Below are positions 639 through 34,588 of a stretch of DNA of 35,827 nucleotides, one piece after another. This DNA comes from a virus. Its lineage: Duplodnaviria; Heunggongvirae; Uroviricota; Caudoviricetes. The DNA lies in the IMG/VR virus record IMGVR_UViG_2534681737_000011. The stretch is one strand, 5' to 3'. Position numbers and translations under genes: made by a program. Below the pieces are notes generated by a model that saw only the letters and a list, made by a program, of their open reading frames with translations, did not search any database and was not told where the DNA came from. Every line of letters begins with the position of its first letter. Within the stretch, counting starts at the first letter, position 1.

Positions 639-663
639 GGGACTCTTCGGAGTCCCTTTTTTT
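639..663 (+). terminator. rho-independent terminator (UUCG-loop hairpin plus T7 run)
   Basis: GGGACTC-ttcg-GAGTCCC followed by TTTTTTT; second of two tandem plus-strand terminators downstream of the 95..379 gene. Confidence 0.55.
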
Positions 664-1603
664 ATTGGCAGTAAGAAAAGTTAGTACCATACATTTCATC
701 ATGAAGCATTGCAGCATTGCGTTTCTGTTCTTCTTCCTCGTCTTCTACATCACTAGAGAAATAGGATTTTCCCTTGAAGGAACGAAGCAATTGCAGTGCA
801 GCCATCGGATCACGCATCACATCGATTTTCACTTCTACTTCATCATTTGCGGCCTCATCAGCCGCGTTTTCAACTACTGCCACCGGAGCAACTTCTTTAG
901 CTTTCAGTTCTTCAATCTCAGCTTTCTGTGCTTCGATAATCTGGTCTTTTTCTTTCAGTGCAGCTTTCAGTTCTGCGATCTGTGCTTCCAGTGCAGCAAA
1001 GCGATCTTCAACAACCGGAGAAACAGCATTCACCTGTGCTTCCAGTTCCAGAAATGCTTCGCAAGATTCAATACGTTCTTTCTCTTCACCTTCATAAGCA
1101 ACCAGTTCTACAACTTCTTTTTCGGTAGCGTGGCTGTTAAAGAAAACAGCAAAGTAAGGATTGCCGGATTTAGTGAAGTTCAGTTTAGCTTTTCCGGTAA
1201 CTTCTTTACGACGACCAAAGGTGATCTGGCAATCAGCGGTATCCTGAAAATCCATGTTAGGAGCGGAAACGATAGCAGTATCACCAGCAATAACCAGGTG
1301 GAACAGTTCAGAAGAGTTCTTAACGGTAAAAGTAACGATGTGGTCTACTGCAACGTCTTTAGCAGGTTTAACGCGGTCGATTGCTTTACGAATGCCGTTA
1401 GGCAGTTTACCGTCAACACCAAAGCCAGCCGCGATCAGTGCTTCACGATGTGCTTTAAAGCCAGCGAAAGCGGATTTCTGCTGCGCAAAGGAAACATGAG
1501 CAACAACTTTCGGCTGAATCTTCTTGTTTGCTTCGGTGCCAAATTTGATAACTGCTTTAGCGTTGGTTACTTCGTTAGTGAAAAAGTTAGCGGAAAATAA
1601 CAT
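662..1603 (-). CDS. hypothetical protein with central coiled-coil and acidic C-terminal region
   Basis: 313-aa ORF; on the minus strand a GGAG motif precedes the start (plus-strand CTCC at about 1612); heptad-like E/K/A-rich segment (AALEAQIAELKAALKEKDQIIEAQKAEIEELKAKE). No family recognised. Confidence 0.6.
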   Translation of the reverse strand: MLFSANFFTNEVTNAKAVIKFGTEANKKIQPKVVAHVSFAQQKSAFAGFKAHREALIAAGFGVDGKLPNGIRKAIDRVKPAKDVAVDHIVTFTVKNSSELFHLVIAGDTAIVSAPNMDFQDTADCQITFGRRKEVTGKAKLNFTKSGNPYFAVFFNSHATEKEVVELVAYEGEEKERIESCEAFLELEAQVNAVSPVVEDRFAALEAQIAELKAALKEKDQIIEAQKAEIEELKAKEVAPVAVVENAADEAANDEVEVKIDVMRDPMAALQLLRSFKGKSYFSSDVEDEEEEQKRNAAMLHDEMYGTNFSYCQ

Positions 1604-1649
1604 TATAAATACTCCTGTGGAAAGTTAGTTTTAATTGTTCATCGCAAAA

Positions 1650-1685
1650 GCCTCCTTGTTGCCGCAAGGGGGCTTTTTTATTTTT
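1650..1685. terminator. hairpin with flanking A/T runs, possible bidirectional terminator
   Basis: GCCTCCTTG-ttgccg-CAAGGGGGC stem-loop followed by TTTTTTATTTTT on the plus strand and preceded by AAAA; lies between two minus-strand genes. Confidence 0.45.
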
Positions 1686-1715
1686 AAAGCCATCATATAA
1701 TTCTCAGTCAAAGTA

Positions 1716-1898
1716 TCAGTAAACCTCGGCGGTAATCTTTACTTTAATGTCATACTTCTTTAAGAGTTTGTGGAAGGTTGATTGATCAATACCTTCACCT
1801 TTAAACCATTCACCCATCACTACATCAGGCGTCAGTTCAAAATAACGCTTTGCCATTTCTAAAACGATTTCACGAGTGAACTTAACAGGTCGTGCCAT
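1716..1898 (-). CDS. small putative DNA-binding protein (paralog of 5190..5423)
   Basis: 60-aa ORF with AGGAGG ribosome-binding site (plus-strand CCTCCT at 1906-1911); shares the pattern RP-x-(K/R)FT-xE ... GI ... F-K ... KK-x-DIK with the 5190..5423 product. Confidence 0.55.
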   Translation of the reverse strand: MARPVKFTREIVLEMAKRYFELTPDVVMGEWFKGEGIDQSTFHKLLKKYDIKVKITAEVY

Positions 1899-2338
1899 CT
1901 TGAATCCTCCTAAATCTGGATTAATGATTTCTTAAAAAAGAGCGTTAACCGCTCACTATTATTTATATGGGGATTGTATTTTATTTTTCAACCCCTCACA
2001 TTTATCTCTTATATATGTATTTATCACAGAGATATGTTAAAATGTTATTCAGATGTTATCAGACGTGTTAAATGTGTTAAACCACAGCACGAATTGCTAA
2101 AGCGAAGAACACGAATTAACCAAATTGATGTTTATGCAATCAATTTAGAAAATTGCATAGCACTTTTTGCTAAAGCGGTGAGTATTAATTGAGCTATGAA
2201 TTGTAAAGATTTGTTACAGGATTTCTCTCAGATCCAAGTCTTAACAGACATATAACAATTTAACAGAAAGATAACAAACGGAAGGAAAATCGGTAAATTT
2301 TCACTTTCAATACAAATATTATACCACATTTTTCTCCA

Positions 2339-2410
2339 ATTGTCAAGTGTAGCACCGATCCTACACAGTGTCAACAAAGGATTTTCAAACCTACACTAGC
2401 CCTACACTAT
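2339..2410. repeat. TGTCAA-flanked hairpin (GTGTAG/CTACAC) plus three CCTACAC repeats
   Basis: TGTCAA GTGTAG caccgatc CTACAC agTGTCAA arrangement, then CCTACAC at about 2360, 2390 and 2401; read directly from sequence. Confidence 0.6.
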
Positions 2411-2413
2411 GAA

Positions 2414-2654
2414 AATTGCCCATGAATTTTGCCCCTGAACCAAAATCCCCTAGATTTCACTATCCCATTTTTGCCCCTGAAACCTACTATTTTTGCCCCT
2501 GAAATTCTGGGAAACAGTGATTTTGCCCCTCATTTTTGCCCCTGAAATGCCAATAATTGCCCCTGAAAATCTAATTTTTGCCCCTGAAATTTGCCCCCGA
2601 AAAGGATTGGTGAGAAAAACTCTTTATAAAACATTAACTTAGTGAGGGGCAAAA
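2414..2654. repeat. iteron array: 13-bp direct repeat TTTTGCCCCTGAA (5 exact, 4 degenerate, 1 inverted copy)
   Basis: Exact copies at 2427-2439, 2468-2480, 2491-2503, 2534-2546, 2576-2588; degenerate copies at 2415-2426, 2521-2532, 2555-2567, 2590-2601; inverted copy TGAGGGGCAAAA at 2643-2654. Spacing is irregular (about 10-40 bp), so not CRISPR-like. Confidence 0.85.
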
Positions 2655-2742
2655 CGGGGAATCGGGCGTGCATAGATATTATATAACACATTCGCTACGC
2701 TCATGTGTAAAACCAAAAACAACAAATAACCAAAAAGATATT

Positions 2743-2762
2743 AGGAGGGCGTAGCCCGACTG
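2743..2762. repeat. 20-bp element AGGAGGGCGTAGCCCGACTG (copy 1 of 2)
   Basis: Near-identical to 3176-3195 (2 mismatches, both in the loop of a GGGC/GCCC mini-hairpin). Confidence 0.7.
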
Positions 2763-2780
2763 CGCGAAGCGCTAACCAAT

Positions 2781-3030
2781 TACTTCTAGTAACACTAATT
2801 TAAACTAGATGATACTAGATGGTCTTAGAAGGAATTAACTAGTTTGCTCGCTCGCTTCGCTCACTCTCAAACGTCTGCGACGCCACTGCGTGGCATCGAG
2901 AATCACTTTTGAAAGGATTTTCTTAGAAAGGGATTTTAAACTAGTTACTAACTGATTCTAGAAAGATAGTAATAATCACTTTGAAGATAATAGTAGTTAA
3001 CTGGTTACTAGATGATTCTAGATCACTTTA
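2781..3030. repeat. CTAG-rich block of short direct repeats
   Basis: Eight CTAG tetramers within about 250 bp; about 25-bp imperfect direct repeat TTAAaCTaGTTACTAacTGATTCTAGA (2937-2965 vs 2997-3026); ATCACTTT(T)GAA at 2901, 2974, 3021; TCTTAGAA(A)GG at 2823 and 2921; GC-rich island at about 2845-2900. Confidence 0.7.
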
Positions 3031-3052
3031 ATGATCATGAAAGGTATTGGTT

Positions 3053-3081
3053 ATCCCTTCGGGATTGCAACCTTCGGTTGC
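3053..3081 (+). other. two tandem UUCG-tetraloop hairpins
   Basis: ATCCC-ttcg-GGAT immediately followed by GCAACC-ttcg-GGTTGC; no adjacent T-run, so not a classical terminator. Confidence 0.55.
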
Positions 3082-3175
3082 TAAATTTCTTCCTGATTAT
3101 TATTTCTTCAAAAGAAAGATTCTTATATTCTAAAGATACTTCTTCGTTTTGATGATGTTTTAATCAAATCTATGA

Positions 3176-3195
3176 AGGAGGGCTTTGCCCGACTG
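3176..3195. repeat. 20-bp element AGGAGGGCTTTGCCCGACTG (copy 2 of 2)
   Basis: Matches 2743-2762; the two copies bracket the CTAG-rich block. Confidence 0.7.
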
Positions 3196-3286
3196 AATAC
3201 CAATCCCTTCCAAAATCATCAAGAATTTTCTCTTATAAATAATATCAGAATTACTTTGATTCACTTTCTTTTAGAGGATTTCCATT

Positions 3287-3754
3287 ATGAACCATAAACT
3301 GACTACCACTACTCCTTTTATCCTTCTGGGTCTGGATGCAGATAGCTTTCACAATGACAAGTTAATGAAGATGTTCCGTGAACGTGGTTATAACATCCTT
3401 TACAATACCGATGAATCCCATTTCTCTAGTGCATGGTATGTTTTCGGAAGAAATAAACGTCCTACCATCGTTGTTAACTGCTTCACCGATGAAGACCGCC
3501 TGAAATACCAGAACATTCCAGCAATCATTGTTCGTGATGACCTGCCTTTCGAAGTCCGTGATTATGACATTGATTTAGGTAGCTTCGTTACTGTCTATGA
3601 ACTGGATGAAGCCATGTTTAACTACGGCAAAGAACCCGCTCAGGAAGCCCCAGAACACGATGAAGAAGATGAGGAAGACGAAGAATACGCGCCAATCTGT
3701 TTCTCTTCTCACGGTGGCTTCTACGGTTACGATGAAGGCTTAGATATGCTGTAA
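3287..3754 (+). CDS. strongly acidic hypothetical protein
   Basis: 155-aa ORF with GAGGA ribosome-binding site; Asp/Glu-rich throughout with a poly-acidic tract (EHDEEDEEDEE) near the C-terminus. Confidence 0.6.
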   Translation: MNHKLTTTTPFILLGLDADSFHNDKLMKMFRERGYNILYNTDESHFSSAWYVFGRNKRPTIVVNCFTDEDRLKYQNIPAIIVRDDLPFEVRDYDIDLGSFVTVYELDEAMFNYGKEPAQEAPEHDEEDEEDEEYAPICFSSHGGFYGYDEGLDML

Positions 3755-4296: not shown

Positions 4297-5109
4297 ATGA
4301 ATACTGTTACCGTTATGAATACTGCTAAAACTGCTTCCATGTCTCTGGTTGTTGATAACACCAAACCGCTGACCATGTCTTCCCGTCAGATCGCTGAATT
4401 TACCGGAAAAGAACATAAGCATGTTAAACGTGATATTAAAACTATGCTTACTTCTCTTGAATTAGATGAGTCCAAATTTGGACGCATCTTTTTTGACCAA
4501 TATGGACGTGAACAAACCGAATATCACCTTGACGAAGAACTTACGCTGACTCTTGTTACTGGTTACGATGTTAAGCGTCGAATGATTGTTATTCAGGAAT
4601 GGAAACGACTGAAAGAAGAAAATGAAAAACTGCGTCAGGAACGTTTAGCTGCTAACCCGTATGCAGACTTTGAAGAAACCGATTGGATCGAACTGGCATT
4701 AAAGAAAACTCGCGAAAATAAAAAGCTGATTGAACTTCATTATCGCAAATCCGTAGATAGCCATTCAATGACCCGTCTGTTAGGCGCTAAAAAGGGCGCT
4801 ACGAAGGTTAAAGAAGCACTGACGGCCTTGCGTACTGCTGGCTACATTGAGCGCGTCTACGATGAAAATAACAAGCCGTGTGGGTATGTTGCTAATGACT
4901 CTTCTCTGTCTTTCTGCCGCATGAATGCTCACTACCAACTTGAGTTTACTGTTGATGTGCTTCCGGTGCTGGTTGAATTGGGTGTTCTGGAAGAAGAACA
5001 AAAAGCAACTCTGAATCTTCCTAAGCCGAACAACACTATTCTGATTCAAAATAAAGCGGCTGAACGTCTCCGCCAGAATGTTGGATCACTGGAAGTCTTC
5101 GGACTGTAA
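4297..5109 (+). CDS. Rha-family phage regulatory protein (N-terminal Rha-like DNA-binding domain)
   Basis: N-terminal segment SSRQIAEFTGKEHKHVKRDI ... YGREQTEYHLDEELTLTLVTGY matches the Rha domain pattern as recalled from memory; ribosome-binding site AAGGGGAAT upstream. Confidence 0.65.
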   Translation: MNTVTVMNTAKTASMSLVVDNTKPLTMSSRQIAEFTGKEHKHVKRDIKTMLTSLELDESKFGRIFFDQYGREQTEYHLDEELTLTLVTGYDVKRRMIVIQEWKRLKEENEKLRQERLAANPYADFEETDWIELALKKTRENKKLIELHYRKSVDSHSMTRLLGAKKGATKVKEALTALRTAGYIERVYDENNKPCGYVANDSSLSFCRMNAHYQLEFTVDVLPVLVELGVLEEEQKATLNLPKPNNTILIQNKAAERLRQNVGSLEVFGL

Positions 5110-5189: not shown

Positions 5190-5423
5190 TCAAAAACCTG
5201 TTGCTTCTACGATCTGACCATCACCGATCTGAACATAGAATTTAATGTCTAACTTCTTCATATTCTTATAGAATTGGGCGATTGAGATCCCATGTTCACT
5301 AAGAATCTGTTCTTTCGATTCCTTACCGCGATCCGCTGTATAGTAAGCGTAGGCAATATCAGCCATCTGTTCTTGAGTGAATCGGCAAGGGCGACCGCGA
5401 GTAGCTTTAGTAGTCATAGTCAT
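5190..5423 (-). CDS. small putative DNA-binding protein (GRP motif plus helix-turn-helix-like segment)
   Basis: N-terminal TRGRPCRFTQEQ followed by an HTH-like ILSEHGISIAQFYKNMKK; paralogous to 1716..1898. Start may be the second ATG at 5417, which has better GGAGA spacing. Confidence 0.55.
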   Translation of the reverse strand: MTMTTKATRGRPCRFTQEQMADIAYAYYTADRGKESKEQILSEHGISIAQFYKNMKKLDIKFYVQIGDGQIVEATGF

Positions 5424-5451: not shown

Positions 5452-6054
5452 TTATTTAGAGGACTTACATTTTATAGGAAAAAGTTCTCCATCGTCAACC
5501 GACATAAAGAACTCTGCTTTGATCCCGTACTGCCTCAAGCGTGAATAGTATGTACCTCGACTTATATCAACCTTGCGAAGCACTTCAAAGAACCCTTTAG
5601 GATCGTTGTAATAGTGGCTATATCGCACGTTAGCGAGTTCAACGAATAGTTCCCTTGTATCACCATATCCTTTCTTAAAAGCCTCGTTACGATAGCGTGT
5701 AACAGCGTGATTTAGCCTTTCATGCTTAAACACTTCCCTTAGTGGCTTCCATTGCAACCGATAGATCGGACCATCGTCGATTCTGTAAAACCGCTTAATG
5801 TCAAAATCAAACCAATCTCGGACTCTCCGAAACTCTGTATGTGATGTTCTATGCTTCTTAAAGAAGTTGTGAACGTCTGTATAACCATTATCACGGTAAA
5901 ATTCTATTAAAATCTCTTTCGCTTCCTCACGGCTAAAACCAGAAGTGGTTATATCTGTTTTTAAATGCTTATGCTTAACTGGTAAACGATATTCATGATC
6001 GGTACAAGACAAGGCTAATTCTAATTCATCTCTTTGTTGCTGATTAATTAGCAT
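5452..6054 (-). CDS. hypothetical protein with C-terminal HTH-like motif (ISRGTYYSRLRQYG)
   Basis: 200-aa ORF with AGGAGG ribosome-binding site (plus-strand CCTCCT at 6059-6064); the C-terminal motif resembles resolvase or homing-endonuclease type HTH; no catalytic motif recognised. Confidence 0.5.
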   Translation of the reverse strand: MLINQQQRDELELALSCTDHEYRLPVKHKHLKTDITTSGFSREEAKEILIEFYRDNGYTDVHNFFKKHRTSHTEFRRVRDWFDFDIKRFYRIDDGPIYRLQWKPLREVFKHERLNHAVTRYRNEAFKKGYGDTRELFVELANVRYSHYYNDPKGFFEVLRKVDISRGTYYSRLRQYGIKAEFFMSVDDGELFPIKCKSSK

Positions 6055-6141: not shown

Positions 6142-8049
6142 ATGAAACTGATTTCTAATAAGGCAAAATTAAAAAAGATTCTCAGAAATGCAGCCAAATA
6201 TATTACGCCACCTCCTAAACTCCTTCCGTCTGAATGGTGCGAAGCGAATATGGTGCTGGTAGATGGTCCTCAAGCGGGGGATAAAGTTAAATTGTTGTCA
6301 TTCCAAAAAGGCATGATTGATGCACCTTTCCTTGAGAACAAGAAAAAGTATGTCCTGATGACCAGTGCGCAGATCGGAAAAACTACCATCTTGAACGGCA
6401 TCCTGTTTAACCAGATGGCTAACGATCCATGCAATATGATTATCGGACAATCAACCGCTAAAGAAATGTCTCAATATCTCGCGGGTAAGATCCGACCGTC
6501 TATCGAAGCATGTGATGCATTAAAAGACGTGGTTACAGACAAGAATGATCGTAATGCGGTTAACAACAATAACCAACTCCAGCTAAAAACGAATCACTTC
6601 CTGTACATGGTATCGCTTACCAGTCCATCAACCCTACGTGGTAAGACCGCAAAGGTTGGATTGCTTGACGAAATCGATGCTGCTACAGCCTCAGAAGAAG
6701 GTGATCCGGTGGCACTGGCTGCTAACCGTTTAACTACTTTTGGAGATGAGGGTCGATTAGTCGTATCCAGTACCCCGACCAGTAAGCTGGGAAGCATTAA
6801 CCAGCAATGGTTATCAAGCGATATGCGTATGTTTTTTGTTCCGTGTCCTCATTGCGGTAGACACCAGGTGATCGAGTGGGAAAACGTTCAATTTGAATGG
6901 CGTAACATCGATGGTAAGAACTTACCCGATCCTGATACCGCTCGTTATATTTGCCCTCACTGTAAGCAATCATGGACAGAAGGGGAACGAATCAGGGCAG
7001 TAGCGCAAGGCGAGTGGAGAGCAACCCGTGAAAGTGAAGTAGCAGGATTCTGGATCAGTCGTCTATATTCACCTTTCAGCACGATCCGCGCTTGTGTGGT
7101 TGATTTTAGTCATGCGTGGCAATCCTTTGATTTACAATCATTTTATAACACCGTATTAGGTAAGGTGTACGACGATCAGGACACGGCAGTAGAAGCAAAT
7201 GAACTGGAACAACTCAAAACAGATGTTTCTATCGAGAATATCCCAGATGACGTGATTTTCTTGTGCTCAGGAATTGACCAACAATTAGACCGCGCAGAAT
7301 CTACCATCTTAGGCGTAGCGAAAGATAAGGTTTACATTCTGGATCACCGCAGCTTTTACGATCATAACTGTGAACGATATGAATCACCTGTTTGGGATCG
7401 TCTGGTTAACTTCAAGAAAACCAAATTCTATAACGTTAATGGTGAACGTGTGCCAATGCTCGCCAGTTTCCTTGATACATCGAACGGTCGATTCACTCAA
7501 GCCGGATACCGTATTTGCGGCAAGTGGAAGAACCTACACGCGATCAAAGGTAGTTCGTCTGGTAATGCTCCAGTGATTCCGGTTAAACCTACCCGCACAG
7601 GTGGTCATGAATTGCTTATGCTGGGTGTTAACGTTGGGAAATCCGCTGTTCGTGAAATGTTGGTTAGAAACCTGAAAGACAATCCTCACATCGGCTTAGA
7701 AATATCAGAAACCGTTCCTGATGATTATCTCGATCAGCTTTTGAGTGAATCCATCAAGCGTACTACTACTGGCGTGCGTTGGGTGAAAAATCCAGGTAGT
7801 ACCCGAAACGAGGCTCTCGACTGTCTGGTTTATAGCTATGCTGCTTCTCGCTACGTTCTTTCAAAAATGTCATGGGATAAACTCATTGCAATGAAAGACA
7901 GCTTAAACCGTGTTGTCGAAGAATCCGTAGAAGCTCCTAAAACGCAATCTGACGAGCAAATCGAAGAAACTAAGCCAATCACACGACCACAACGTCAAAA
8001 CATCGCCAGACGCCCAAATAGAGGCCGTAGCTGGGTAACATCGTTCTAA
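6142..8049 (+). CDS. terminase large subunit, lambda GpA-like
   Basis: Walker A (SAQIGKTT) and Walker B (VGLLDEID) motifs; C-terminal region with CPHCG ... CPHC metal-binding motifs typical of GpA-type terminases; lies directly upstream of the portal gene. Confidence 0.85.
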
Positions 8050-14001: not shown

Positions 14002-17000
14002 ATGGAGTCTATCCAATTTAAACGCACACAGACGGCTGGTAAAAAGCCAACGCCAGAACAACTGGCACAGGGTGAGGTAGCAATTAACCTTGCCGACCAC
14101 GTAATTTACACCAAAGACAAAAATAACGCAGTAGTTCAAATCAGCGTTTCCCCAGAAAGTCATAATGCTTTAAACACGAAAGTAGACAATAACAAGAAAA
14201 CTACTGATTCTACTATCGCGGCAAATAAAACCGAAGCTGCTAACGCTCTGGCTACCGCTAAATCTGAACTGAATAACACTATTAACACGAAAGATACAGC
14301 GACCAATAAGCGCATTGATGCTACTAACACCACTGTTAGTAACTTAACCCAGACAGTCACGGCAAATAAAACCGACGCTGACACCAAGATCAATAACCTT
14401 ACGGGGACAGTTGCGGCAAACAAATCAGCTATTGAAACTACCGTAGCGAATAACAAACGAGACGCGGACAATAAAATCTCAGCTTTAACCACTACGGTTA
14501 ATGACAACAACACCGCGATCAATAGCCGTGTTGATACCACTAACACCAATGTTAGCAATCTGACCAAAACCGTTACAGCTAACAAGTCTGATGCTGATTC
14601 CAAGATCTCCAGCTTAACGAGTACCGTTGCAGCTAACAAATCAGCCATTGAAACTACGGTAGCGAACAATAAACGCGATGCTGATACGAAGATCACCAAC
14701 TTAACCAACACTGTTAATAGCAACCATACCGCCATTAACAACAAGGTTGACCAGAATAAAACCAGCACAGATGCAGCGATTGCAGCCGCTAACAAGCGAA
14801 TTGATGGTATTGAAGGTAGCAACGATGCTCTTTACATCAAGAAGAACACAAATACCTATCATCACGGCTATCTGTTAACCAAAACAGCTAACTATTTTGA
14901 TGATGCTGGTGCTCGTAACCTTGATTATTTTGGTGCGTTTCGTCCGAACAATGCCGAAGGTTGGGGTAACTTAATCCTTAACATTCCTCATTCTGGCGGT
15001 AAAGCACACGGTCGCGGCTTTGAGTTCCATTATGGGTCTAGCTCATCTCAGGTTAAAACCTATGGCTTTGATAAGGACGGTAACAAGAGATTCAGCTATC
15101 GCATGTACCATGAAGGTGATAAGCCGACTCCTGATGAATTGGGTGTGTATAGTAAAGCCGAAGTTGATCAGATGTTCATCAAGAACGTTAGAATGACCGT
15201 TCCTTCTGGTGATGCTACTCGTGGATACTTCAAGATCGCAACCGCTACGATCCCACAGAATGGTCGAATGGTAATGCTTCGTATCTTCGGTGGTAATGGT
15301 TATAACGTTAACTCTTATGATCAGGTTGACTTTGTAGAAATTGTCATCCGTTCCGGTAACAATAACCCGAAAGGCGTTAGTATTGCTGCTTATCGTCGAA
15401 ATGCTCTGAACGTTCATCAAGTATTTGCGGTTAATACTTCCGGTGATAACTACGATATCTACGTTAACTACGGTCGTTACACCGATAACGTTATTGTCGA
15501 ATACGGTAAAACTGATGGCGTTACTCTGACAGTACATGATGTTCCTGAATTAACTCTCGTTAAACCTTCTGTTGGTGTTACCGATGCTCGTGTTATTACG
15601 ATGTTCAACACCGAAAACAAAGCCGGAACGTTGATGTTTGATAATAACGGTCAAGGAACGTATGATATTATCAGTCTGAATAACTCAACTGATACAAATA
15701 AAAAATATCTTCGTAAATTCCGTAGCAAATCAGCCGAAACAATTTGGCATGAAGTTGTTGAAGGTAGTGTCTATCGTTTAGCTACTGGTGTTACTGATAC
15801 AGCGGATCAATTAAAAATTGATTTTAATGGTGTTACTGTAAACCGCCTTTTTGTTAAGGGTAATAACGCTATTAGAATGGAACGCCGCGACGGGCAAAGT
15901 AACTATATCGAATTCTTTGATTATCGTTCTGGTGCTAATCGTCGTCAGGGTTATCTAGGTTATGGTGATGGTACTACTAACACTGTACAGTTAGTAAATG
16001 AATTAACGGAAGGTAATAACTCTGTAAGACTGGATGAGAACGGTCAAGTTTCATTATCCACTGGCAAAACAAAAATTGTGTACACAAACGGCGAATATGT
16101 TGCTGCATACGCTAACGCATTCCGTATGATTTACGGTAACTACGGTGCATTCTGGCGTAATGATGGTGGTAAAGTTTATCTTCTTTCAACTGCCGAAAAT
16201 GATAAATTTGGTGGCTGGAACGGCAACCGACCATTCATTTACGATTTGACTACTGGTAAAGTTACTTTAGGTGGTGATGGTAACGAGGGTGCATTAGTTC
16301 TCGAACGAGATAGCCGTGCTGCTCGATTTGCTGGTGATATTTACGTCGGTAAAGGAATGTTAACCTTTGATGCTGGTCGATTAAATTCTCGCGACTACTT
16401 CCGGTTTAACCATTGGGGCGATAGCAATAACGCTCGTGATAATATCTTACAGCTTGACGATAGCAAAGGTGCACACTTCACCACTGAACGTACTTTAGCA
16501 ACTGGTGCGATTAAAACTAAATTCTTCGGTGATTTAGAAGCTGCTGGACAAATTCGCTGGGGTAAAGGTACTGCAACTTCTACGTTTAATATTCGTGCAT
16601 GGGGCGCTGATGCTCGTAAACAAGTGTTTGAATGTGCTGATGAAAGCGGTTGGCACTGGTATACCCAACGTGCTGGCGGTCCTGGTACTGAATTAATCGA
16701 GTTTGCTATTAACGGTACTGTTAAGCCTAAAGCAATCCACACTGGAGGCAATATCACCCTGAATGGTGCTGATATTGAGTTTAAGCGCACTGGTAACAAG
16801 CATTTATGGTTTAGAGATCCAAACGGCTTAGAGTTGGGTCTGTTGTACTGCGATGATGCTGGTGTTATGCGTATGCGCGGTGAGAAACAAGCCGAAGTCT
16901 GGAAATTCGGCGGTAAGATGATTCACCTTGAAACGGGCACTGTATCCGGTGGCGGTAATGGTCTTATTCGTGGTAGCGTTGCTGGTGGTAGTTGGGCTAG

Positions 17001-17589
17001 CTGGCGTGATCGTGCTTCCGGTATTCAGGTCGACTGCCAGCAATCAACCGATTCCGCTCATAACATCTGGAAAGCAACCCATCAAGGTAAATATCATATC
17101 GCCGCAATGGGTGTACACGTTCCTAGCGGTACTATCGGTAACGCTCTTGTTCGTCTCCATGTTCATGATGCCGTCTTTGACTTTAACGCATCCGGTGACA
17201 TGACGGCAGGTCGTAACGGTAGCTTTAACGATGTTTACATTCGCTCTGACTCTCGTCTGAAAATTAACAAGGAAGAATTACAGGACGGTGCATTAGAGAA
17301 AGTAAACTCCCTGAAAGTATACACCTACGATAAAGTTAAATCTCTTTCTGATGACACGGTAATTAAACGCGAAGTAGGTATTATTGCTCAGGATCTGGAA
17401 AAAGTATTGCCGGAAGCAGTAGGTATTCAATCTACCGAAGATCCAGAACATCCAGAAGCAATCAAGACTATTTCTAACTCTGCTGTCAATGCTTTAATCA
17501 TCAAGGCTATGCAGGAAATGGATGCTAAGTATCAAGCTAAGATTGATGCACTGACTAAAGAATTAGCCGAACTCAAAGCAACTAAATAA
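14002..17589 (+). CDS. long tail fibre protein with C-terminal S74-type intramolecular chaperone domain
   Basis: 1195-aa ORF with GAGGTGA ribosome-binding site; N-terminal repetitive T/N/K/A-rich region with two tandem units of about 72 aa; C-terminal SDSRLK motif followed by a coiled-coil tail, as in self-cleaving fibre and tailspike chaperone domains. Confidence 0.8.
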   Translation: MESIQFKRTQTAGKKPTPEQLAQGEVAINLADHVIYTKDKNNAVVQISVSPESHNALNTKVDNNKKTTDSTIAANKTEAANALATAKSELNNTINTKDTATNKRIDATNTTVSNLTQTVTANKTDADTKINNLTGTVAANKSAIETTVANNKRDADNKISALTTTVNDNNTAINSRVDTTNTNVSNLTKTVTANKSDADSKISSLTSTVAANKSAIETTVANNKRDADTKITNLTNTVNSNHTAINNKVDQNKTSTDAAIAAANKRIDGIEGSNDALYIKKNTNTYHHGYLLTKTANYFDDAGARNLDYFGAFRPNNAEGWGNLILNIPHSGGKAHGRGFEFHYGSSSSQVKTYGFDKDGNKRFSYRMYHEGDKPTPDELGVYSKAEVDQMFIKNVRMTVPSGDATRGYFKIATATIPQNGRMVMLRIFGGNGYNVNSYDQVDFVEIVIRSGNNNPKGVSIAAYRRNALNVHQVFAVNTSGDNYDIYVNYGRYTDNVIVEYGKTDGVTLTVHDVPELTLVKPSVGVTDARVITMFNTENKAGTLMFDNNGQGTYDIISLNNSTDTNKKYLRKFRSKSAETIWHEVVEGSVYRLATGVTDTADQLKIDFNGVTVNRLFVKGNNAIRMERRDGQSNYIEFFDYRSGANRRQGYLGYGDGTTNTVQLVNELTEGNNSVRLDENGQVSLSTGKTKIVYTNGEYVAAYANAFRMIYGNYGAFWRNDGGKVYLLSTAENDKFGGWNGNRPFIYDLTTGKVTLGGDGNEGALVLERDSRAARFAGDIYVGKGMLTFDAGRLNSRDYFRFNHWGDSNNARDNILQLDDSKGAHFTTERTLATGAIKTKFFGDLEAAGQIRWGKGTATSTFNIRAWGADARKQVFECADESGWHWYTQRAGGPGTELIEFAINGTVKPKAIHTGGNITLNGADIEFKRTGNKHLWFRDPNGLELGLLYCDDAGVMRMRGEKQAEVWKFGGKMIHLETGTVSGGGNGLIRGSVAGGSWASWRDRASGIQVDCQQSTDSAHNIWKATHQGKYHIAAMGVHVPSGTIGNALVRLHVHDAVFDFNASGDMTAGRNGSFNDVYIRSDSRLKINKEELQDGALEKVNSLKVYTYDKVKSLSDDTVIKREVGIIAQDLEKVLPEAVGIQSTEDPEHPEAIKTISNSAVNALIIKAMQEMDAKYQAKIDALTKELAELKATK
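14320..14750 (+). repeat. two tandem copies of an about 216-bp coding repeat inside the tail fibre gene
   Basis: Protein units IDATNTTVSNLTQTVTANKTDADTKINNLTGTVAANKSAIETTVANNKRDADNKISALTTTVNDNNTAINSRVD and TTNTNVSNLTKTVTANKSDADSKISSLTSTVAANKSAIETTVANNKRDADTKITNLTNTVNSNHTAINNKVD; also visible at nucleotide level. Confidence 0.75.
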
Positions 17590-17645: not shown

Positions 17646-18122
17646 ATGTCTCAACAATTCAAAGATATTTTTACTGGTGGTCTGGTAAGTATGTTCTATC
17701 AAGCGGACACTACTAATGCCGATCTCTCGGCAGAAAGCTACGAAGAAATTAAAGAGTGTGCTGGTTTTCCTGAAACTGGTATCGAACGCGGTACTGTAGA
17801 AGTTAAATCCTTCTCTTCTCAGTATAACCGTAAACTGGTAGGGAAACTGAACGTTCCTGATCTGACTCTGACCGTTAACTACATCCCAGGTGATGCGGTA
17901 CACGCTAAACTGGATAAGGCAGCCGAAGATGGCACGCGTATTCAGATTAAGATTGAATATTATGTTGATGCTGGTAAGCAGACTGGTATTCGCACCGCTT
18001 TCAACGGCTTTATCTCTAAAGCGGCTATGCAGGGTGGCGATGAAGAAGTCGTAACTAAAGAATATACCTTTGCTGTTGATGGTGCTCCGATCAAACAGGA
18101 AGTGTTTACCGCTGGTGGTTGA
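17646..18122 (+). CDS. major tail (tube) protein, gpV-like
   Basis: 158-aa ORF with AAGGGGTAAT motif; segments (ADLSAESYEE ... GFISKA) recall the lambda gpV N-domain; lies directly upstream of the chaperone pair and tape measure gene. Ends in TGA-A. Confidence 0.6.
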   Translation: MSQQFKDIFTGGLVSMFYQADTTNADLSAESYEEIKECAGFPETGIERGTVEVKSFSSQYNRKLVGKLNVPDLTLTVNYIPGDAVHAKLDKAAEDGTRIQIKIEYYVDAGKQTGIRTAFNGFISKAAMQGGDEEVVTKEYTFAVDGAPIKQEVFTAGG

Positions 18123-18233
18123 ACTTTCGAAGAACAACCCCAGCCAATTCAAGATGAACCTACGGTGATTCCTGAAATTGAGGTTGTTACGGCGAAAGCC
18201 ACAGCTAAACGAAGCCGCAAGGCTAAAGATTAA
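18123..18233 (+). other. stop-free in-frame extension after the major tail TGA (36 codons, ends ...VVTAKATAKRSRKAKD)
   Basis: Translated directly: TFEEQPQPIQDEPTVIPEIEVVTAKATAKRSRKAKD then TAA; same frame as the tail gene; contains the 24-nt block at 18186-18209 identical to 12272-12295. Confidence 0.5.
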
Positions 18234-18238
18234 TTATA

Positions 18239-18267
18239 AGCCCTGCCTTAATGGTGGGGCTTTTTTA
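18239..18267 (+). terminator. rho-independent terminator after the major tail gene and its extension
   Basis: AGCCCTGCC-ttaat-GGTGGGGCT followed by TTTTTT; near-identical to 12331-12357. Confidence 0.7.
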
Positions 18268-18281
18268 TTGGAGTAATCAAA

Positions 18282-18788
18282 ATGGCAAATGTCGTTAAAG
18301 TTCCCGGCTGGATCGGGTCATCGGCTGTATCAGTGACGGGTAAGCGATGGATGAAAGAAGCATTAACAGCTTTAAAAGTTCCGGCTCCGCGTAATATGTC
18401 GGCAATGGCTGGTCGTGGTATGGATACGGTTGTTGCTACTGCTGCATGGTCTACCTCATTGGGTAATAACTGGGGTGTAACTGCTTCAAACTATCCAGTA
18501 ACTGACATGCGCGGTAAAGGATCTATGGAGAACCCCGAAAACGTGGGCGTAGGCCATCTGGTTGGCGTTATCGTTGGTCAATTCAATGGCGGTACTCCTA
18601 CTATGGCTGTATATCTCCAGAACGGTAGAGCGGGGAATATAACCGTTAATTTGGGTGGTGCTGCTGTCACTGTTCCTTATAACAGTATGCAAAGCGGTTT
18701 TCATTACTATTGGTTAAGCAATCCTCCGGCTGCTTTCCTCAATAACATTAAGAAGACTGGCACTAAGCAGACTTTGAAAATCTCTTAA
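18282..18788 (+). CDS. hypothetical tail-module protein
   Basis: 168-aa Gly/Ala-rich ORF with GGAG ribosome-binding site, between the major tail protein and chaperone genes. Confidence 0.5.
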   Translation: MANVVKVPGWIGSSAVSVTGKRWMKEALTALKVPAPRNMSAMAGRGMDTVVATAAWSTSLGNNWGVTASNYPVTDMRGKGSMENPENVGVGHLVGVIVGQFNGGTPTMAVYLQNGRAGNITVNLGGAAVTVPYNSMQSGFHYYWLSNPPAAFLNNIKKTGTKQTLKIS

Positions 18789-29427: not shown

Positions 29428-30927
29428 TTATATAGCAATTGTTTTAGTTGCATAGCTGAACTTGTCGGTTAGATAATAGCGGATTCTCTCAAGTGCATGT
29501 TTTACCGCATAATTTTTATGCTTGACTTTTCCGTTACGACCGAATATACACAGATGATCGATAAGATCCCAGACCGTTGCAATGTCTTTCGAACCATGTT
29601 TACGCAATGCACGACCGATACTCTGACGAACGATAGTTGATTCCTTCACTGGATGACCGAAAATAACATGGTGCAAATTCTTAATTGAAACACCAGTAGA
29701 GAACACACCATAGGATGCAACGCAAATGATCCCTGTTTCCCCTTCCGCTAATTTCTTAAATTCATCACGTTCTTCTGTCTTAACCCCACCGTCAATATAA
29801 TAAACCTTGTCGTGTACCTTCTGTAACGCATCATACATAAGTTTTCCGTGCTTAGTGTTGCGGAACATCAGGAATACGTTTTCGCCCTTCTTAGCGAGTT
29901 TTAGCGCCAAATTACAAGCAAACTTATTTCGTCGTGGATTAGACGTAATATACTTGATCTCTTCCGCATATTCTCGCCCCTTAACCGCGCTACATTCCTC
30001 ATCGGTATAACGAAGGAAAAGACAGTTAATTTTCAGTTTTGTCACCTGCCCTTCTTCCATCAGGCGGTCAATGCTAACGATCTTAGAAATATCACCGAAA
30101 AGCCCGACATACTGCATTAAATGGCACTTTGATTCTTTCGGGGAACCAGTCATACCGATTTTGAACTGGCAATGATTCATTCCGTTAATGATATTGGTAA
30201 TATTTTTGGCACTAGCCTTATGCGATTCATCAACTATCAACATTCCATATTGTCGGAACCATTCAGGAGGCATCTTGCAAGCTGATTGCCAGGTACTAAC
30301 CGTGATTAACCTGTCTCCCGGATGTTTCCCGCTACCACTCATCATTGTATGAATTGCTTCATAAGGGAATAGCCTATAATCGATGAAATCATCCCTCAGT
30401 TGAACCACTAGCGATGTAGTCGGAACAATGATTAGAACTTTTCCGGTGTAATGCTCTAAGTACCAACGAGACAGCATACAAGCAATCAATGACTTACCCG
30501 CACTGGTAGGAAGAACCAGCATTCTACGGCGATTATGGATACCCTGAAAGACTGCCTCCCTTTGATACCAATAAGGATTGATTTTATTGCTACCGGAATA
30601 CACTTCTAAGGAATCAATCCATTCATTAATCGCGTCTTTGGTTACATCTTCCTTATCAAGCAATCGCGGGTCAATCCAGACTGAATAGCCCATATTTTTA
30701 ACGAAGACACCCAATGTTTTTAATAGTCCAATTGGTAGGGTATTTTCATGCGTAAACAGTCTTATTCGTCCATCCCAGCCGGAATACTTGTAGCGGGGGC
30801 TAAACTTAGCCCCTTCAACCTCAAACGAGAAATAATCTCTTAATTCCATTCCGATAGAAGGAGAGCAATCAACCTTAACGAAACTGTAATCTTGAAAATG
30901 AATTTTAATATCTTGCATTAGTTCCAC
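29428..30927 (-). CDS. uvsW: ATP-dependent DNA helicase, UvsW-like (superfamily 2)
   Basis: Walker A (LPTSAGKS), DExH box (IVDESH) and C-terminal helicase motifs (VASYGVFSTGVSIKNLHHV); N-terminal region resembles the T4 UvsW N-domain as recalled from memory. Confidence 0.75.
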   Translation of the reverse strand: MELMQDIKIHFQDYSFVKVDCSPSIGMELRDYFSFEVEGAKFSPRYKYSGWDGRIRLFTHENTLPIGLLKTLGVFVKNMGYSVWIDPRLLDKEDVTKDAINEWIDSLEVYSGSNKINPYWYQREAVFQGIHNRRRMLVLPTSAGKSLIACMLSRWYLEHYTGKVLIIVPTTSLVVQLRDDFIDYRLFPYEAIHTMMSGSGKHPGDRLITVSTWQSACKMPPEWFRQYGMLIVDESHKASAKNITNIINGMNHCQFKIGMTGSPKESKCHLMQYVGLFGDISKIVSIDRLMEEGQVTKLKINCLFLRYTDEECSAVKGREYAEEIKYITSNPRRNKFACNLALKLAKKGENVFLMFRNTKHGKLMYDALQKVHDKVYYIDGGVKTEERDEFKKLAEGETGIICVASYGVFSTGVSIKNLHHVIFGHPVKESTIVRQSIGRALRKHGSKDIATVWDLIDHLCIFGRNGKVKHKNYAVKHALERIRYYLTDKFSYATKTIAI

Positions 30928-31487
30928 TCCACACTTGCAATATTCTTTATATTGTTTAGTGATTTATTGCAGTAGTGGAATGTTTCAGTTTTGCCGTATT
31001 CAATCCCGCCTATACCCACATCCAGTAATCTCTTTATTGCTCTTTCAGTGGCTAAAGCATGTTTCATTGATGGCATTTCACCAGCAAAGACAATATCAAA
31101 GTCATGACCGGGATTGCGTACACCTAGATTAATGCGTCGCTTGATGATTGACTTTGTAACACCAAATTTACCAATATCCCCTGATTTCATTACATAGAGA
31201 TAAGGCACACCCGCTTTATATTGAAAGTAATCACTTTTGAGACAAGCACAGCGTTTACCTTCATTAAGCAGGTTAGTAGCTGATTTGTCGGCTCTATTGC
31301 CACATCGGGTACATGTAAGAGCAATTCTTGAATGAAGCCCTTTAAACTCACCCAGAAAGCCATGAAAGACTAATGGTAAGTCCTTATCTTTGATGTGAGT
31401 CAGAATGCGTTGTTCTAATGCCGATGGAGTTACAGCACGGGAGGATTTAGGAGTAAAAACAATATCTTTAGCCATTACTGGAATCAT
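30918..31487 (-). CDS. zinc-finger / GIY-YIG-like (T5orf172-type) putative endonuclease
   Basis: GTGAGGT ribosome-binding site before the ATG at 31487; Cys-rich segment CTRCGNRADKSATNLLNEGKRCAC; C-terminal YLYVMKSGDIGKFGVTKSIIKRRINL fits the GIY ... YIG ... R pattern; 3-prime end overlaps the helicase gene by 10 nt. Confidence 0.55.
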   Translation of the reverse strand: MIPVMAKDIVFTPKSSRAVTPSALEQRILTHIKDKDLPLVFHGFLGEFKGLHSRIALTCTRCGNRADKSATNLLNEGKRCACLKSDYFQYKAGVPYLYVMKSGDIGKFGVTKSIIKRRINLGVRNPGHDFDIVFAGEMPSMKHALATERAIKRLLDVGIGGIEYGKTETFHYCNKSLNNIKNIASVEWN

Positions 31488-31529
31488 ATAGACCTCACTT
31501 TTTAACTTATAGGCATAACCTCAATATGG

Positions 31530-31558
31530 TTGGTTTGGGATTTAGGGTCGCGTATTAT
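31530..31558 (+). promoter_or_regulatory. candidate sigma70 promoter (-35 TTGGTT, 17-bp spacer, -10 TATTAT)
   Basis: Located in the 153-bp divergent intergenic region, about 80 bp upstream of the 31641 start. Confidence 0.4.
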
Positions 31559-31640
31559 ACACATCCAGATAGAGAATGCAATAGTAAGACAATTTTCTCT
31601 GATAAATAGTAGTGAACTTATTATTTTAGAGGAAACTACT

Positions 31641-32816
31641 ATGAAACTTGCTTACGCTGCCGAAATTCCTTTTGTTAAGAAAACTCGCGGTTTATCGCCG
31701 GAAGAGTACCAACAACGAATCATCGCTAAACTGGAACCTGCTTTCGTATTTGGTGGATTTATCCTACCGTGGAAGGGTAATCACACTTACTTTCGAATCT
31801 ACAATTTAGACACACAAGAATATAAGGACTACAAATTACGCAAACTGGAAGATACTAACGGGGGTGAGTTATTCCAGACTGAAAAGGCTGTATGGTTGAA
31901 AATGGAATCTCGTTGTAATGAGAAGGGAAAGAAATTCCTCGGATGGCAAGGAGAATGGAAAGGGCGAAATAGAACGAAAGCCCGTGTTTTGTGCCCTGAA
32001 CACAATCAAATCATGACGCCATCTCTATTACATGCTCTCAAAGATGATTTCGATTTTGATTGCAAAATCTGTATGGCTGAAAAATCCCAACGGGTAAGAA
32101 GTGGCAAGACTTTTGATGAAGTTATTAAGGACAAAGAGACAATCATCAATGCACGTTGCGAGAGTACGCCTTACACCTTCAAAGGATTCATCATAAACAC
32201 CCCACACCTAAAGGATGTTAAATTTAAAACCTATTGCAAGACACATAACCACGAATGGGAATCTCATTTAAGATGTGCTGATTCTTTCACTTGTCCGCTT
32301 TGCATTAAAGACCAACTGGTGCAACTGTCTAACCGGACTTATCAGGGTAAGGCTAGTTTCTACATTCAATTATTAGATGACAAATTTATTAAATTTGGAA
32401 TCACTACCCGGAAACCAGAAGAACGAATGAGAGAGCAAACCAGAAAGAGCAACTTCACTCACCGCTTAATCTTTACTCATGAGTTTGAGGATGGTTGGAA
32501 AGCCGTTGATTTAGAGCATGAAGTAAAACAACGCTTCAAGACTCATGCAGCACCCTACAAAGATTTCAAGGATGGATGGTCGGAAACTCTGACTATTGAT
32601 GAGTTGCCACACTTACAGCAACTGGTTTATGACTACCTAACCAATCAACCGGACGAGGCTAATATGTGGGTATCCCCGAAAGATGTATTTGATGACGATA
32701 CATTCAAGCTACATACTCACTTCTACGGCATCAATAAACCGGAATTTTTCTGTATTGATGACGACAGTCCTGATTTAATGGATGAATACTTTAATGCTCT
32801 CTTAGATGCTGCCTAG
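31641..32816 (+). CDS. zinc-finger / GIY-YIG-like (T5orf172-type) putative endonuclease, divergent paralog-like partner
   Basis: Start chosen at the ATG with AGAGGA ribosome-binding site (31627-31632) rather than the track start at 31530; repeated Cys/His modules (CPEHNQ ... CKICMAEK; CKTHNHEW ... CPLCIKDQ); C-terminal FYIQLLDDKFIKFGITTRKPEERMRE fits the GIY ... YIG ... R ... E pattern. Confidence 0.55.
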   Translation: MKLAYAAEIPFVKKTRGLSPEEYQQRIIAKLEPAFVFGGFILPWKGNHTYFRIYNLDTQEYKDYKLRKLEDTNGGELFQTEKAVWLKMESRCNEKGKKFLGWQGEWKGRNRTKARVLCPEHNQIMTPSLLHALKDDFDFDCKICMAEKSQRVRSGKTFDEVIKDKETIINARCESTPYTFKGFIINTPHLKDVKFKTYCKTHNHEWESHLRCADSFTCPLCIKDQLVQLSNRTYQGKASFYIQLLDDKFIKFGITTRKPEERMREQTRKSNFTHRLIFTHEFEDGWKAVDLEHEVKQRFKTHAAPYKDFKDGWSETLTIDELPHLQQLVYDYLTNQPDEANMWVSPKDVFDDDTFKLHTHFYGINKPEFFCIDDDSPDLMDEYFNALLDAA

Positions 32817-34569: not shown

Positions 34570-34588
34570 ACCATTTCCAAACAAAAAC

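Follow-up and report, generated by a model that had tools for sequence, protein, structure and literature searches.

A helically phased repeat array that co-varies with an orphan protein in an Escherichia coli prophage: a possible iteron-type replication origin

Arrays of short sites that are read by one dedicated protein are known from the replication origins of lambdoid phages (O/ori of lambda, phi80, 82 and 21), from plasmid iteron replicons (P1 RepA/incC, F RepE/ori2, pSC101 and R6K), from the Rep-ori loci of Staphylococcus aureus pathogenicity islands (SaPI) and other phage-inducible chromosomal islands (PICI), from the operators of the Mu c and P2 C proteins, and from lambda cosB/Nu1. 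Here we analyzed such an array in the IMG/VR record IMGVR_UViG_2534681737_000011, a 35,827-nt stretch that we call the window and that represents an uncharacterised 38-kb prophage of Escherichia coli. The array comprises nine direct copies of the 13-mer TTTTGCCCCTGAA and, judged from sequence comparison, is very probably the binding platform of a 313-amino-acid (aa) protein encoded to its left, because the N-terminal domain (N-domain) of this protein alone tracks the repeat motif among relatives, while the intervening DNA recombines freely. The array and the protein may together be an iteron/initiator pair that forms the replication origin of the phage, a reading to which we give, by analogy with the systems above, a probability of roughly 0.4.

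The lambdoid O/ori resembles this locus in its phased direct repeats, its phage protein of ~300 aa, its strong early promoter, and an N-terminal domain that is type-specific and co-varies with the repeats, the remainder being better conserved. Unlike in lambda, where four iterons lie inside the O gene, the nine sites here are located ~0.8 kb upstream of the gene, past another gene and a leader; furthermore, there is no P-like loader gene and the protein is similar to O neither in sequence nor in predicted fold. Plasmid iteron replicons share with the locus a set of 5–9 repeats with ~22-bp periodicity beside the promoter of the binding-protein gene, as well as partial inverted copies, specificity types and changes of copy number by whole units. 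They differ in the length of the repeat core (17–22 bp versus 13 bp here) and in their DnaA boxes and AT-rich 13-mers, which are not found here, whereas our locus has its inverted copies on the promoter-distal side, encodes no recognizable winged-helix Rep and belongs to an integrating phage. In the SaPI/PICI Rep-ori loci, short iterons likewise co-vary with the specificity region of the initiator, and their layout is matched by one relative of the window (type D below) in which two repeat blocks surround an AT-rich spacer; in contrast to the 313-aa protein, which has no helicase domain, the SaPI Rep is a helicase with recognizable domains, and the origin lies 3′ of rep.

A preliminary description of the window had reported five exact, four degenerate and one inverted copy of the 13-mer, and a pattern search of the sequence recovered all of them at the places given there. 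The exact direct copies start at 2427, 2469, 2491, 2534 and 2576, against ~0.001 exact 13-mers expected by chance on both strands, and the degenerate direct copies start at 2414 (three mismatches) and at 2521, 2555 and 2589 (two mismatches each). The inverted copy occupies 2642–2654, where the minus strand reads TTTTGCCCCTCAC. No further copy with up to two mismatches was found in the 35.8-kb window apart from one chance-level match at 31044. An extra degenerate site with a CCCCT core at 2443–2460 is similar to the motif of type C, one of the array types listed below. The partner gene and the parts of the array are as follows:

662..1603, minus strand: 313-aa orphan protein, the proposed array-binding partner, whose N-domain type equals the motif type
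2414..2601, plus strand: type-A direct-repeat array of nine TTTTGCCCCTGAA copies, all in one direction
2602..2641: 40-bp spacer from the array to the inverted copy, AAAAACTCTTTATAAAACATTAACTT, only moderately AT-rich and common to types A and C
2642..2662, minus strand: distal inverted copy (core AGGGGCAAAA at 2645–2654) with a partial second inverted half-site, CGGGGAAT

The spacing had been called irregular, which does not hold for the exact copies and the copy at 2555: these fall on a lattice of ~21.3 bp with intervals of 42, 22, 43, 21 and 21 bp. The other three copies are off the lattice, each of them 13 bp from a lattice copy. When four array types were pooled, 16 of the 24 intervals corresponded to two, three, four or five helical turns (binomial P = 1.5e-5). 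The type-A array is nearly invariant across 10 loci, in its repeats and spacers alike, and thus gives no signal of differential conservation; its copy number varies only by in-phase units, through deletions of 22 and 65 bp. The distal inverted copy is kept in seven of the ten type-A loci and in the type-A′ locus (L010), and is disrupted in the remaining three type-A loci. Two other readings of the repeats were discarded: a CsrA-sponge-like RNA, as types A and A′ contain no GGA on either strand, and a CRISPR-like array, as the units are 13 bp and the gaps 0–29 bp. Rfam covariance models run over positions 1500–3500 gave only three sub-threshold hits at chance level, none of them within the array.

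The region from 1600 to 3300 was found in 58 of 5426 complete genomes (~1%) with 80–96% identity, always on the chromosome. The conservation in relatives that the preliminary description had put forward as a check applies to the place of the array and, approximately, to its phasing, but not to the repeat unit, which differs by type:

Type A: TTTTGCCCCTGAA, this window and nine other loci
Type B: (A)CCTACACT(A), 11 loci
Type C: ATCCCCAAGATTCC, also written ATCCCCAAGATTCCA, locus L007
Type A′: ATTTTTGCCCCT, seven copies plus the inverted AGGGGCAAA, locus L010
Type D: ~20 copies of TCCCCG(T/C) (TCCCCGY) at ~11-bp spacing in two blocks, followed by inverted copies, locus L026

The A and A′ motifs have a common core, TTTTGCCCCT. 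The last intervals of the arrays are 21/23/22(/22) bp in types B and C and 19/23/22 bp in type A′, and most type-A intervals are multiples of ~21 bp. In type D, the two repeat blocks flank a spacer of ~45 bp with 72% AT.

A per-open-reading-frame (ORF) identity matrix was combined with the typing of 24 loci, and the type of the N-domain (~150 N-terminal residues) matched the repeat motif in 24 of 24. The 313-aa ORF was the only gene that followed the motif type, and it did so in these N-terminal ~150 residues. Within type A the proteins are 99–100% identical, and the same is true within type B; the N-domains of types A, B, C and D cannot be aligned with one another (13–27% identity), and that of A′ is 57% identical to that of A. 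Since the array and the 313-aa gene are only ~1 kb apart, the association could in part reflect linkage, which would weaken our reading, but the freely recombining middle argues otherwise. What lies between the array and the 313-aa gene, namely the 60-aa gene and the left non-coding module, occurs in two unrelated forms, and each form is found with both A and B arrays. Co-variation by mere linkage is thus unlikely, because the intervening DNA has repeatedly recombined away from both flanks and the array and the N-domain have never been separated. This match supports the preliminary description in its view of the array as a platform where a sequence-specific DNA-binding protein would occupy multiple sites, and it redirects the choice of that protein: the likely partner is the 313-aa ORF instead of the three proteins suggested for electrophoretic mobility shift assays (1716..1898, 5190..5423 and the Rha-like 4297..5109). 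By its distribution, which shows no relation to array type, the 60-aa ORF is removed as a partner. The same applies to the UvsW-like helicase, which is present in 13 of 35 type-A genomes, in at least one type-B genome and in other types, and to the large and small terminase subunits (TerL and TerS), neither of which tracks the motif.

The N-domains (residues 1–160 in the window protein) are basic, with an isoelectric point of 9.8 in types A, A′, B and C; the rest of the protein is acidic. An AlphaFold2 model (predicted local distance difference test, pLDDT, 61) shows a mixed alpha/beta N-domain at residues 1–156, which is moderately confident (pLDDT ~63–87), then a long helix at residues 182–235 and a disordered acidic tail. 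From this model, we propose that the helix is a coiled coil that would serve as an oligomerisation region. Searches of Pfam, PHROGs, NCBIfam and PDB sequences with the 313-aa protein returned no match, a search of 5.8 billion proteins returned only near-identical E. coli copies, and among 1.84 billion representatives scanned exhaustively there were 12 hits, of which only two are informative. With tblastn, no match was found in the phage collection (type B query) or in 72,556 plasmids (type A query). An antisense ORF of 311 aa with a TTG start (665–1600, plus strand) spans almost the whole 313-aa gene; it is probably a by-product, because the minus-strand gene has a ribosome-binding site and is conserved in relatives.

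The array lies within a 1.4-kb ORF-free region (1899–3286) between divergent operons. The leftward operon consists of the 60-aa ORF (1716–1898) and the 313-aa ORF (662–1603), and the rightward operon, to the right of the array, encodes a 155-aa ORF, a 110-aa ORF and the Rha-like protein. Every relative inspected has this gene order, with a non-coding region of similar size (1.27–1.46 kb). The features to the left of the array are the following:

1646..1677: terminator-like GC-rich hairpin between the genes for the 60-aa and 313-aa proteins (strong on the plus strand, 4-U tail on the minus strand), kept in L007 and L008
1716..1898, minus strand: small helix-turn-helix (HTH)-like protein of 60 aa, first gene of the leftward operon and paralogue of the 77-aa ORF at 5190–5423
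1899..2317, minus strand: leader of the leftward operon, ~410 nt (the 'form 1' left module), replaced in many relatives by an unrelated 'form 2'
2318..2374, minus strand: two tandem leftward sigma-70 promoters, assigned by consensus match, that read towards the 60-aa and 313-aa ORFs
2346..2409: four copies of CCTACAC, the type-B motif core, direct at 2360, 2390 and 2401 and inverted at 2347–2352

The proximal promoter, TTGACA (2346–2341)-17-TATAAT, spans 2346–2318, has an extended −10 TG and matches the consensus at 12 of 12 positions, and the distal one, TTGACA (2374–2369)-17-TACACT, spans 2374–2346 and matches at 10 of 12. Equivalent strong leftward promoters are also present in L007, L008 and L010. 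The preliminary description had seen a TGTCAA-flanked hairpin here. A 6-bp inverted repeat, GTGTAG/CTACAC, is indeed located between TGTCAA at 2341–2346 and at 2369–2374, but the two TGTCAA are a direct pair, and on the minus strand they are the TTGACA −35 hexamers of both promoters. The three CCTACAC repeats noted alongside the hairpin were found at 2360–2366, 2390–2396 and 2401–2407. The CCTACAC copies cover the −10 box and spacer of one leftward promoter or abut the promoters just upstream. As the window phage is of type A, it carries these copies without a type-B protein to bind them, and they are missing in type-A loci with the other left-module form (L002 and L032); they may have been left behind by a cassette exchange, or may allow cross-talk with type-B relatives. 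The form 2 module contains three LexA-box-like sites (e.g., TGCTGTATGAATTAACAGTG) 100–220 nt upstream of the 60-aa gene, seen in L002, L007, L008, L009, L026 and L032 at positions ~100–225 of the non-coding region, which suggests that the leftward operon is under SOS control in form-2 relatives.

This promoter arrangement bears on a reading in which the array is solely an upstream activator or autoregulatory element that activates, insulates or throttles the tandem leftward promoters and plays no role in replication or immunity. The type-A sites of the window begin 40 bp upstream of the nearest (distal) −35 box, and in all forms examined the array lies upstream of a strong leftward promoter. 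However, the distance varies, with the array ~200 bp from the strong promoter in form-2 relatives, a consensus promoter requires no activator, and pure autoregulation leaves both the diversifying specificity types and the 5–20 sites unexplained. We consider this reading improbable. On the plus strand, consensus-based prediction gave no promoter in or beside the array.

In the origin reading, the basic N-terminal domain would read the asymmetric motif of ~12–13 bp and the central coiled coil would oligomerise the 313-aa protein, so that copies docked at two-turn intervals along the same face of the helix would build a cooperative, higher-order nucleoprotein complex. This complex would be the phage replication origin, in which a type-specific recognition domain is joined to a more conserved effector part; being directly upstream of the strong leftward early promoters of the initiator's own operon, it would probably also feed back on them. 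Physical binding, oligomerisation and, most of all, the origin role are points that we infer. We favour an origin because the layout is that of an iteron replicon (inverted partial copies, a spacer, 5–9 direct repeats on a 21–22-bp lattice, a promoter and the gene for the binding protein), because the type-specific N-domain follows the logic of the lambdoid O/ori, and because the copy number of the array shifts only by in-phase units. The phage also lacks another recognizable initiator: family scans of the ORFs detected no initiator, primase or polymerase in the 38-kb prophage, and the only helicase is the UvsW-like protein, which is variable cargo. In addition, the consensus early-type promoters and the LexA-box-like sites in relatives suggest induction and not maintenance, and other regulators are available for a switch, namely three paralogous small HTH proteins, Rha and the palindromic TTCTAGAA-like sites. 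As in an iteron origin, there are at least three phased repeats in the same direction and an adjacent gene with co-varying specificity, the latter in the sense of co-variation only and not of initiator activity.

Several results weigh against an origin. The 313-aa protein has no detectable fold relatives, its predicted fold is not a winged helix of the Rep or O kind, and no helicase-loader or primase gene accompanies it. Neither a DnaA box (up to one mismatch) nor an IHF consensus was found near the arrays of types A, B, C and D, and a loose Fis pattern matched in the flanking modules only and not at the array. No clear AT-rich unwinding element is seen beside the type-A array, where the AT fraction of the flank at 2602–2641 is ~0.6 in 40-bp windows versus 0.53–0.82 elsewhere in the non-coding region; the type-D spacer has 72% AT. 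The form 1 module of the window has no LexA boxes; it contains TGTTA/TTAACA-type repeats at 2035–2080 and 2241–2277. Moreover, immunity switches just as typically lie in intergenic DNA between divergent operons and come in diverse types. The pair of array and protein cannot be filed under the known iteron or repressor families, because the protein is unrelated to them and the host-factor sites and the winged-helix fold were looked for and not found. What is new is a putative orphan DNA-binding domain with at least five interchangeable specificities, the phased array that goes with it, and their unusual place between the TerS and TerL genes.

The main alternative is an operator array of an immunity or genetic switch, with the 313-aa protein as a type-specific repressor or regulator that would coat the DNA between the divergent leftward and rightward operons, and the types as heteroimmune variants. 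The protein would then be comparable to Mu c, with its DNA-binding domain, coiled coil and C-terminal tail, or to P2 C, with its direct repeats ~22 bp apart. Both systems have an asymmetric repeated site between divergent promoters and an oligomeric coiled-coil protein, as is proposed here, and the direct repeats bound by P2 C are two helical turns apart, like the lattice of our array. An immunity role would fit the array inside the 1.4-kb region between divergent operons, the five or more specificities seen in close relatives, which selection for heteroimmunity would be expected to produce, and the modelled coiled-coil oligomerisation region. It would also fit a truncated prophage remnant in strain rl0044 that retains the array/partner module, and the C-termini of the proteins, which end in -AA in types B, C, D and A′ (AYAA, RKAA, DFAA and RRAA; L007, L008, L010 and L026) and which we take to be reminiscent of ssrA/ClpX-type degrons; the type-A protein of the window ends in FSYCQ. 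However, the operators of Mu c and P2 C overlap an early promoter and their repressor genes have weak promoters, whereas here no overlap is predicted and the promoter is a consensus one. The type-A sites are upstream of the −35 boxes and over no recognized promoter, the candidate rightward promoter (~3154–3181) is ~550 bp away, and the motif is found nowhere else in the genome. The 12/12 consensus promoter, together with the LexA-box-like sites in many relatives, suggests an induced gene and not a maintenance gene, and the conserved part of the region has palindromic operator-like sites of its own as well as conserved HTH proteins for them. Lysogens point both ways, as one genome carries A and B prophages together and one shows two places with a type-A N-domain; with one genome on either side, this double-lysogen evidence is anecdotal. 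Taken together, we regard an immunity switch as a somewhat doubtful reading, and continue to favour the origin.

The wider prophage bears on a further reading. Its genes include a large serine recombinase (32890–34584, minus strand), a gpA-type large terminase (6142–8049), a lambda-type portal, and complete sets of tail and lysis genes. The element occupies 62–64 places in E. coli, all of them on the chromosome, with a split ycdX, hicB or codB at its flanks; in KSC64, the element interrupts ycdX, and in other strains hicB or codB. No close relative was found among 50,697 deposited phages, in which the best TerL match is 43% identical, and a literature search for this prophage found nothing. 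A distant Atlantibacter locus (TerL 49% identical) has the same layout but was set aside, as its proteins are not detectably homologous. The preliminary description had also considered a partition (centromere-like) site, which would bind a ParR/ParB-like adaptor as in R1 parC or plasmid prophages. A binding-protein operon whose promoter is preceded by direct repeats on an 11/22-bp lattice resembles parC/ParR. Nevertheless, this element is integrated into the chromosome (ycdX, hicB or codB) by a large serine recombinase, all matches are chromosomal, no ParA, ParM or TubZ-type NTPase was recognized by Pfam and PHROGs in the ORFs scanned in the left arm and at the right end, and 72,556 plasmids contain no homologue of the 313-aa protein. 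Partition is thus very improbable.

The possibility that the array is the binding site of the small terminase subunit had been raised together with the statement that no such subunit was evident, and the latter proved to be an artefact of the window edge. A Nu1-like TerS of 184 aa (phrog_57, E = 5e-16; weak Pfam Phage_Nu1 match, E = 0.016) is encoded near attL, and its TAA stop ends exactly one base before window position 1 (17856–18410 in locus L001). We take its N-terminus to be similar to the Nu1 helix-turn-helix. TerS and TerL genes are set apart by the whole 6.1-kb early/control region, including oppositely oriented genes. The array is 2.4 kb downstream of the TerS gene, past two oppositely oriented genes, and 3.5 kb from the TerL gene. 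As a cosB/pac-like platform, the array would resemble lambda cosB/Nu1 in offering multiple sites to a phage DNA-binding protein beside a gpA-type terminase, with the TerL gene 3.5 kb off, and phased multi-copy sites could wrap a ring-shaped TerS oligomer. Unlike in lambda, however, the gene for the Nu1-like protein lies elsewhere, and its sequence does not change with the array type: TerS is 85–96% identical across array types A and B (72–96% across the loci compared), and TerL occurs in two types, 59% identical (window 6142–8049 versus L001 24647–26551), that assort independently of the array type and of TerS. The TerS gene directly left of the window also has its own GC-rich upstream region of ~300 bp (L001 17558–17855), which is the likely cos. 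The ends of metagenomic contigs in the non-coding region scatter (2637, 2927, ~3109 and ~3302) without converging on one cos position. We reject packaging recognition, the least probable of the readings considered, with only a slight chance of being correct. The independent assortment of TerL and TerS is, in itself, unexpected for interacting terminase subunits.

To the right of the array, small GC-rich hairpins form a block that is kept from one array type to the next (2747–2757, 2762–2772, 2853–2861 on the minus strand, 2879–2897, 3053–3065, 3067–3081 and 3180–3190). Compensatory changes are seen in a stem that reads GGGC-GTA-GCCC in the window, GGCC-GTA-GGCC in L010 and CGGC-GTA-GCCG in L008, and the stem at 2879–2897 is rewritten in L010 and L008. 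Several of the hairpins have C-GNA-G triloops, including GCGAAGC. The block has no Rfam match. The hairpins could act in RNA, as a discrete transcript of ~330 nt ending at the terminator-like 3067–3081, or in single-stranded DNA. A motif AGGAGGGC..GCCCGACTG occurs twice, at 2743–2762 and 3176–3195. Palindrome-like sites (GATTCTAGAAAG, GATTCTAGATCAC, GGTCTTAGAAGG and TTCTTAGAAAGGG) and ATCACTTT repeats, located between 2783 and 3040 in the portion of the non-coding region that the array types share, are candidate operators for a conserved regulator. A broader proposal joins this block to the array: a previously undescribed minimal replication module consisting of a single orphan initiator, whose DNA-binding domain would be of a new type and would come in at least five interchangeable specificity cassettes, the phased array and the ~450-bp mini-hairpin block, set between the TerS and TerL genes. 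In such a module, the mini-hairpins may act in single-stranded DNA as priming or loading signals, or as primer-like RNA. This fuller scheme is speculative, and we hold it to be unlikely.

Further to the right, a non-coding stretch of 84 bp (3093–3176) is 76–81% identical to an intergenic element of RB49/JSE-like T4-type phages, each of whose genomes has two to three copies. With the stem-loop upstream of it (3067–3081), the stretch resembles the promoter-early stem-loop (PeSL) cassettes of these phages (PMC2839356). The tail fibre gene (14002–17589) has ~80% nucleotide identity to RB49 gp37. The PeSL-like stretch and the RB49-like tail fibre point to an exchange of DNA between this temperate phage and virulent T4-like phages.

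The 60-aa protein and the 77-aa protein (5190–5423, minus strand) are paralogues (E = 3e-7) with an HTH-like signature, RPxxFT...GI...F.K..KK.DIK, and a 200-aa protein (5452–6054, minus strand) apparently contains two modules similar to this type. By their sequences, the three look like a family of small DNA-binding regulators without a Pfam match. Between the lysis genes and the integrase (29428–32816) lies variable cargo, in which a GIY-YIG/T5orf172-type nuclease and two proteins with CapR domains are encoded along with the UvsW-like helicase. Just 17 of 5426 genomes have this helicase, and in L007 and L008 the whole cargo region is swapped for other genes.

The analysis thus provides a concrete, testable protein–DNA pair in a prophage family whose repeat region is present in ~1% of complete E. 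coli genomes and which has no close relative among 50,697 phages, and it removes the puzzle of the missing TerS. A putative DNA-binding domain without known relatives that has at least five specificities for one site geometry is a natural system in which to study the swapping of recognition codes. If the array and the 313-aa protein are an immunity switch, the array types would define the heteroimmunity groups of this prophage family. If they are the origin, as we favour, they would explain where replication starts in a 38-kb phage that has no recognizable replication genes.

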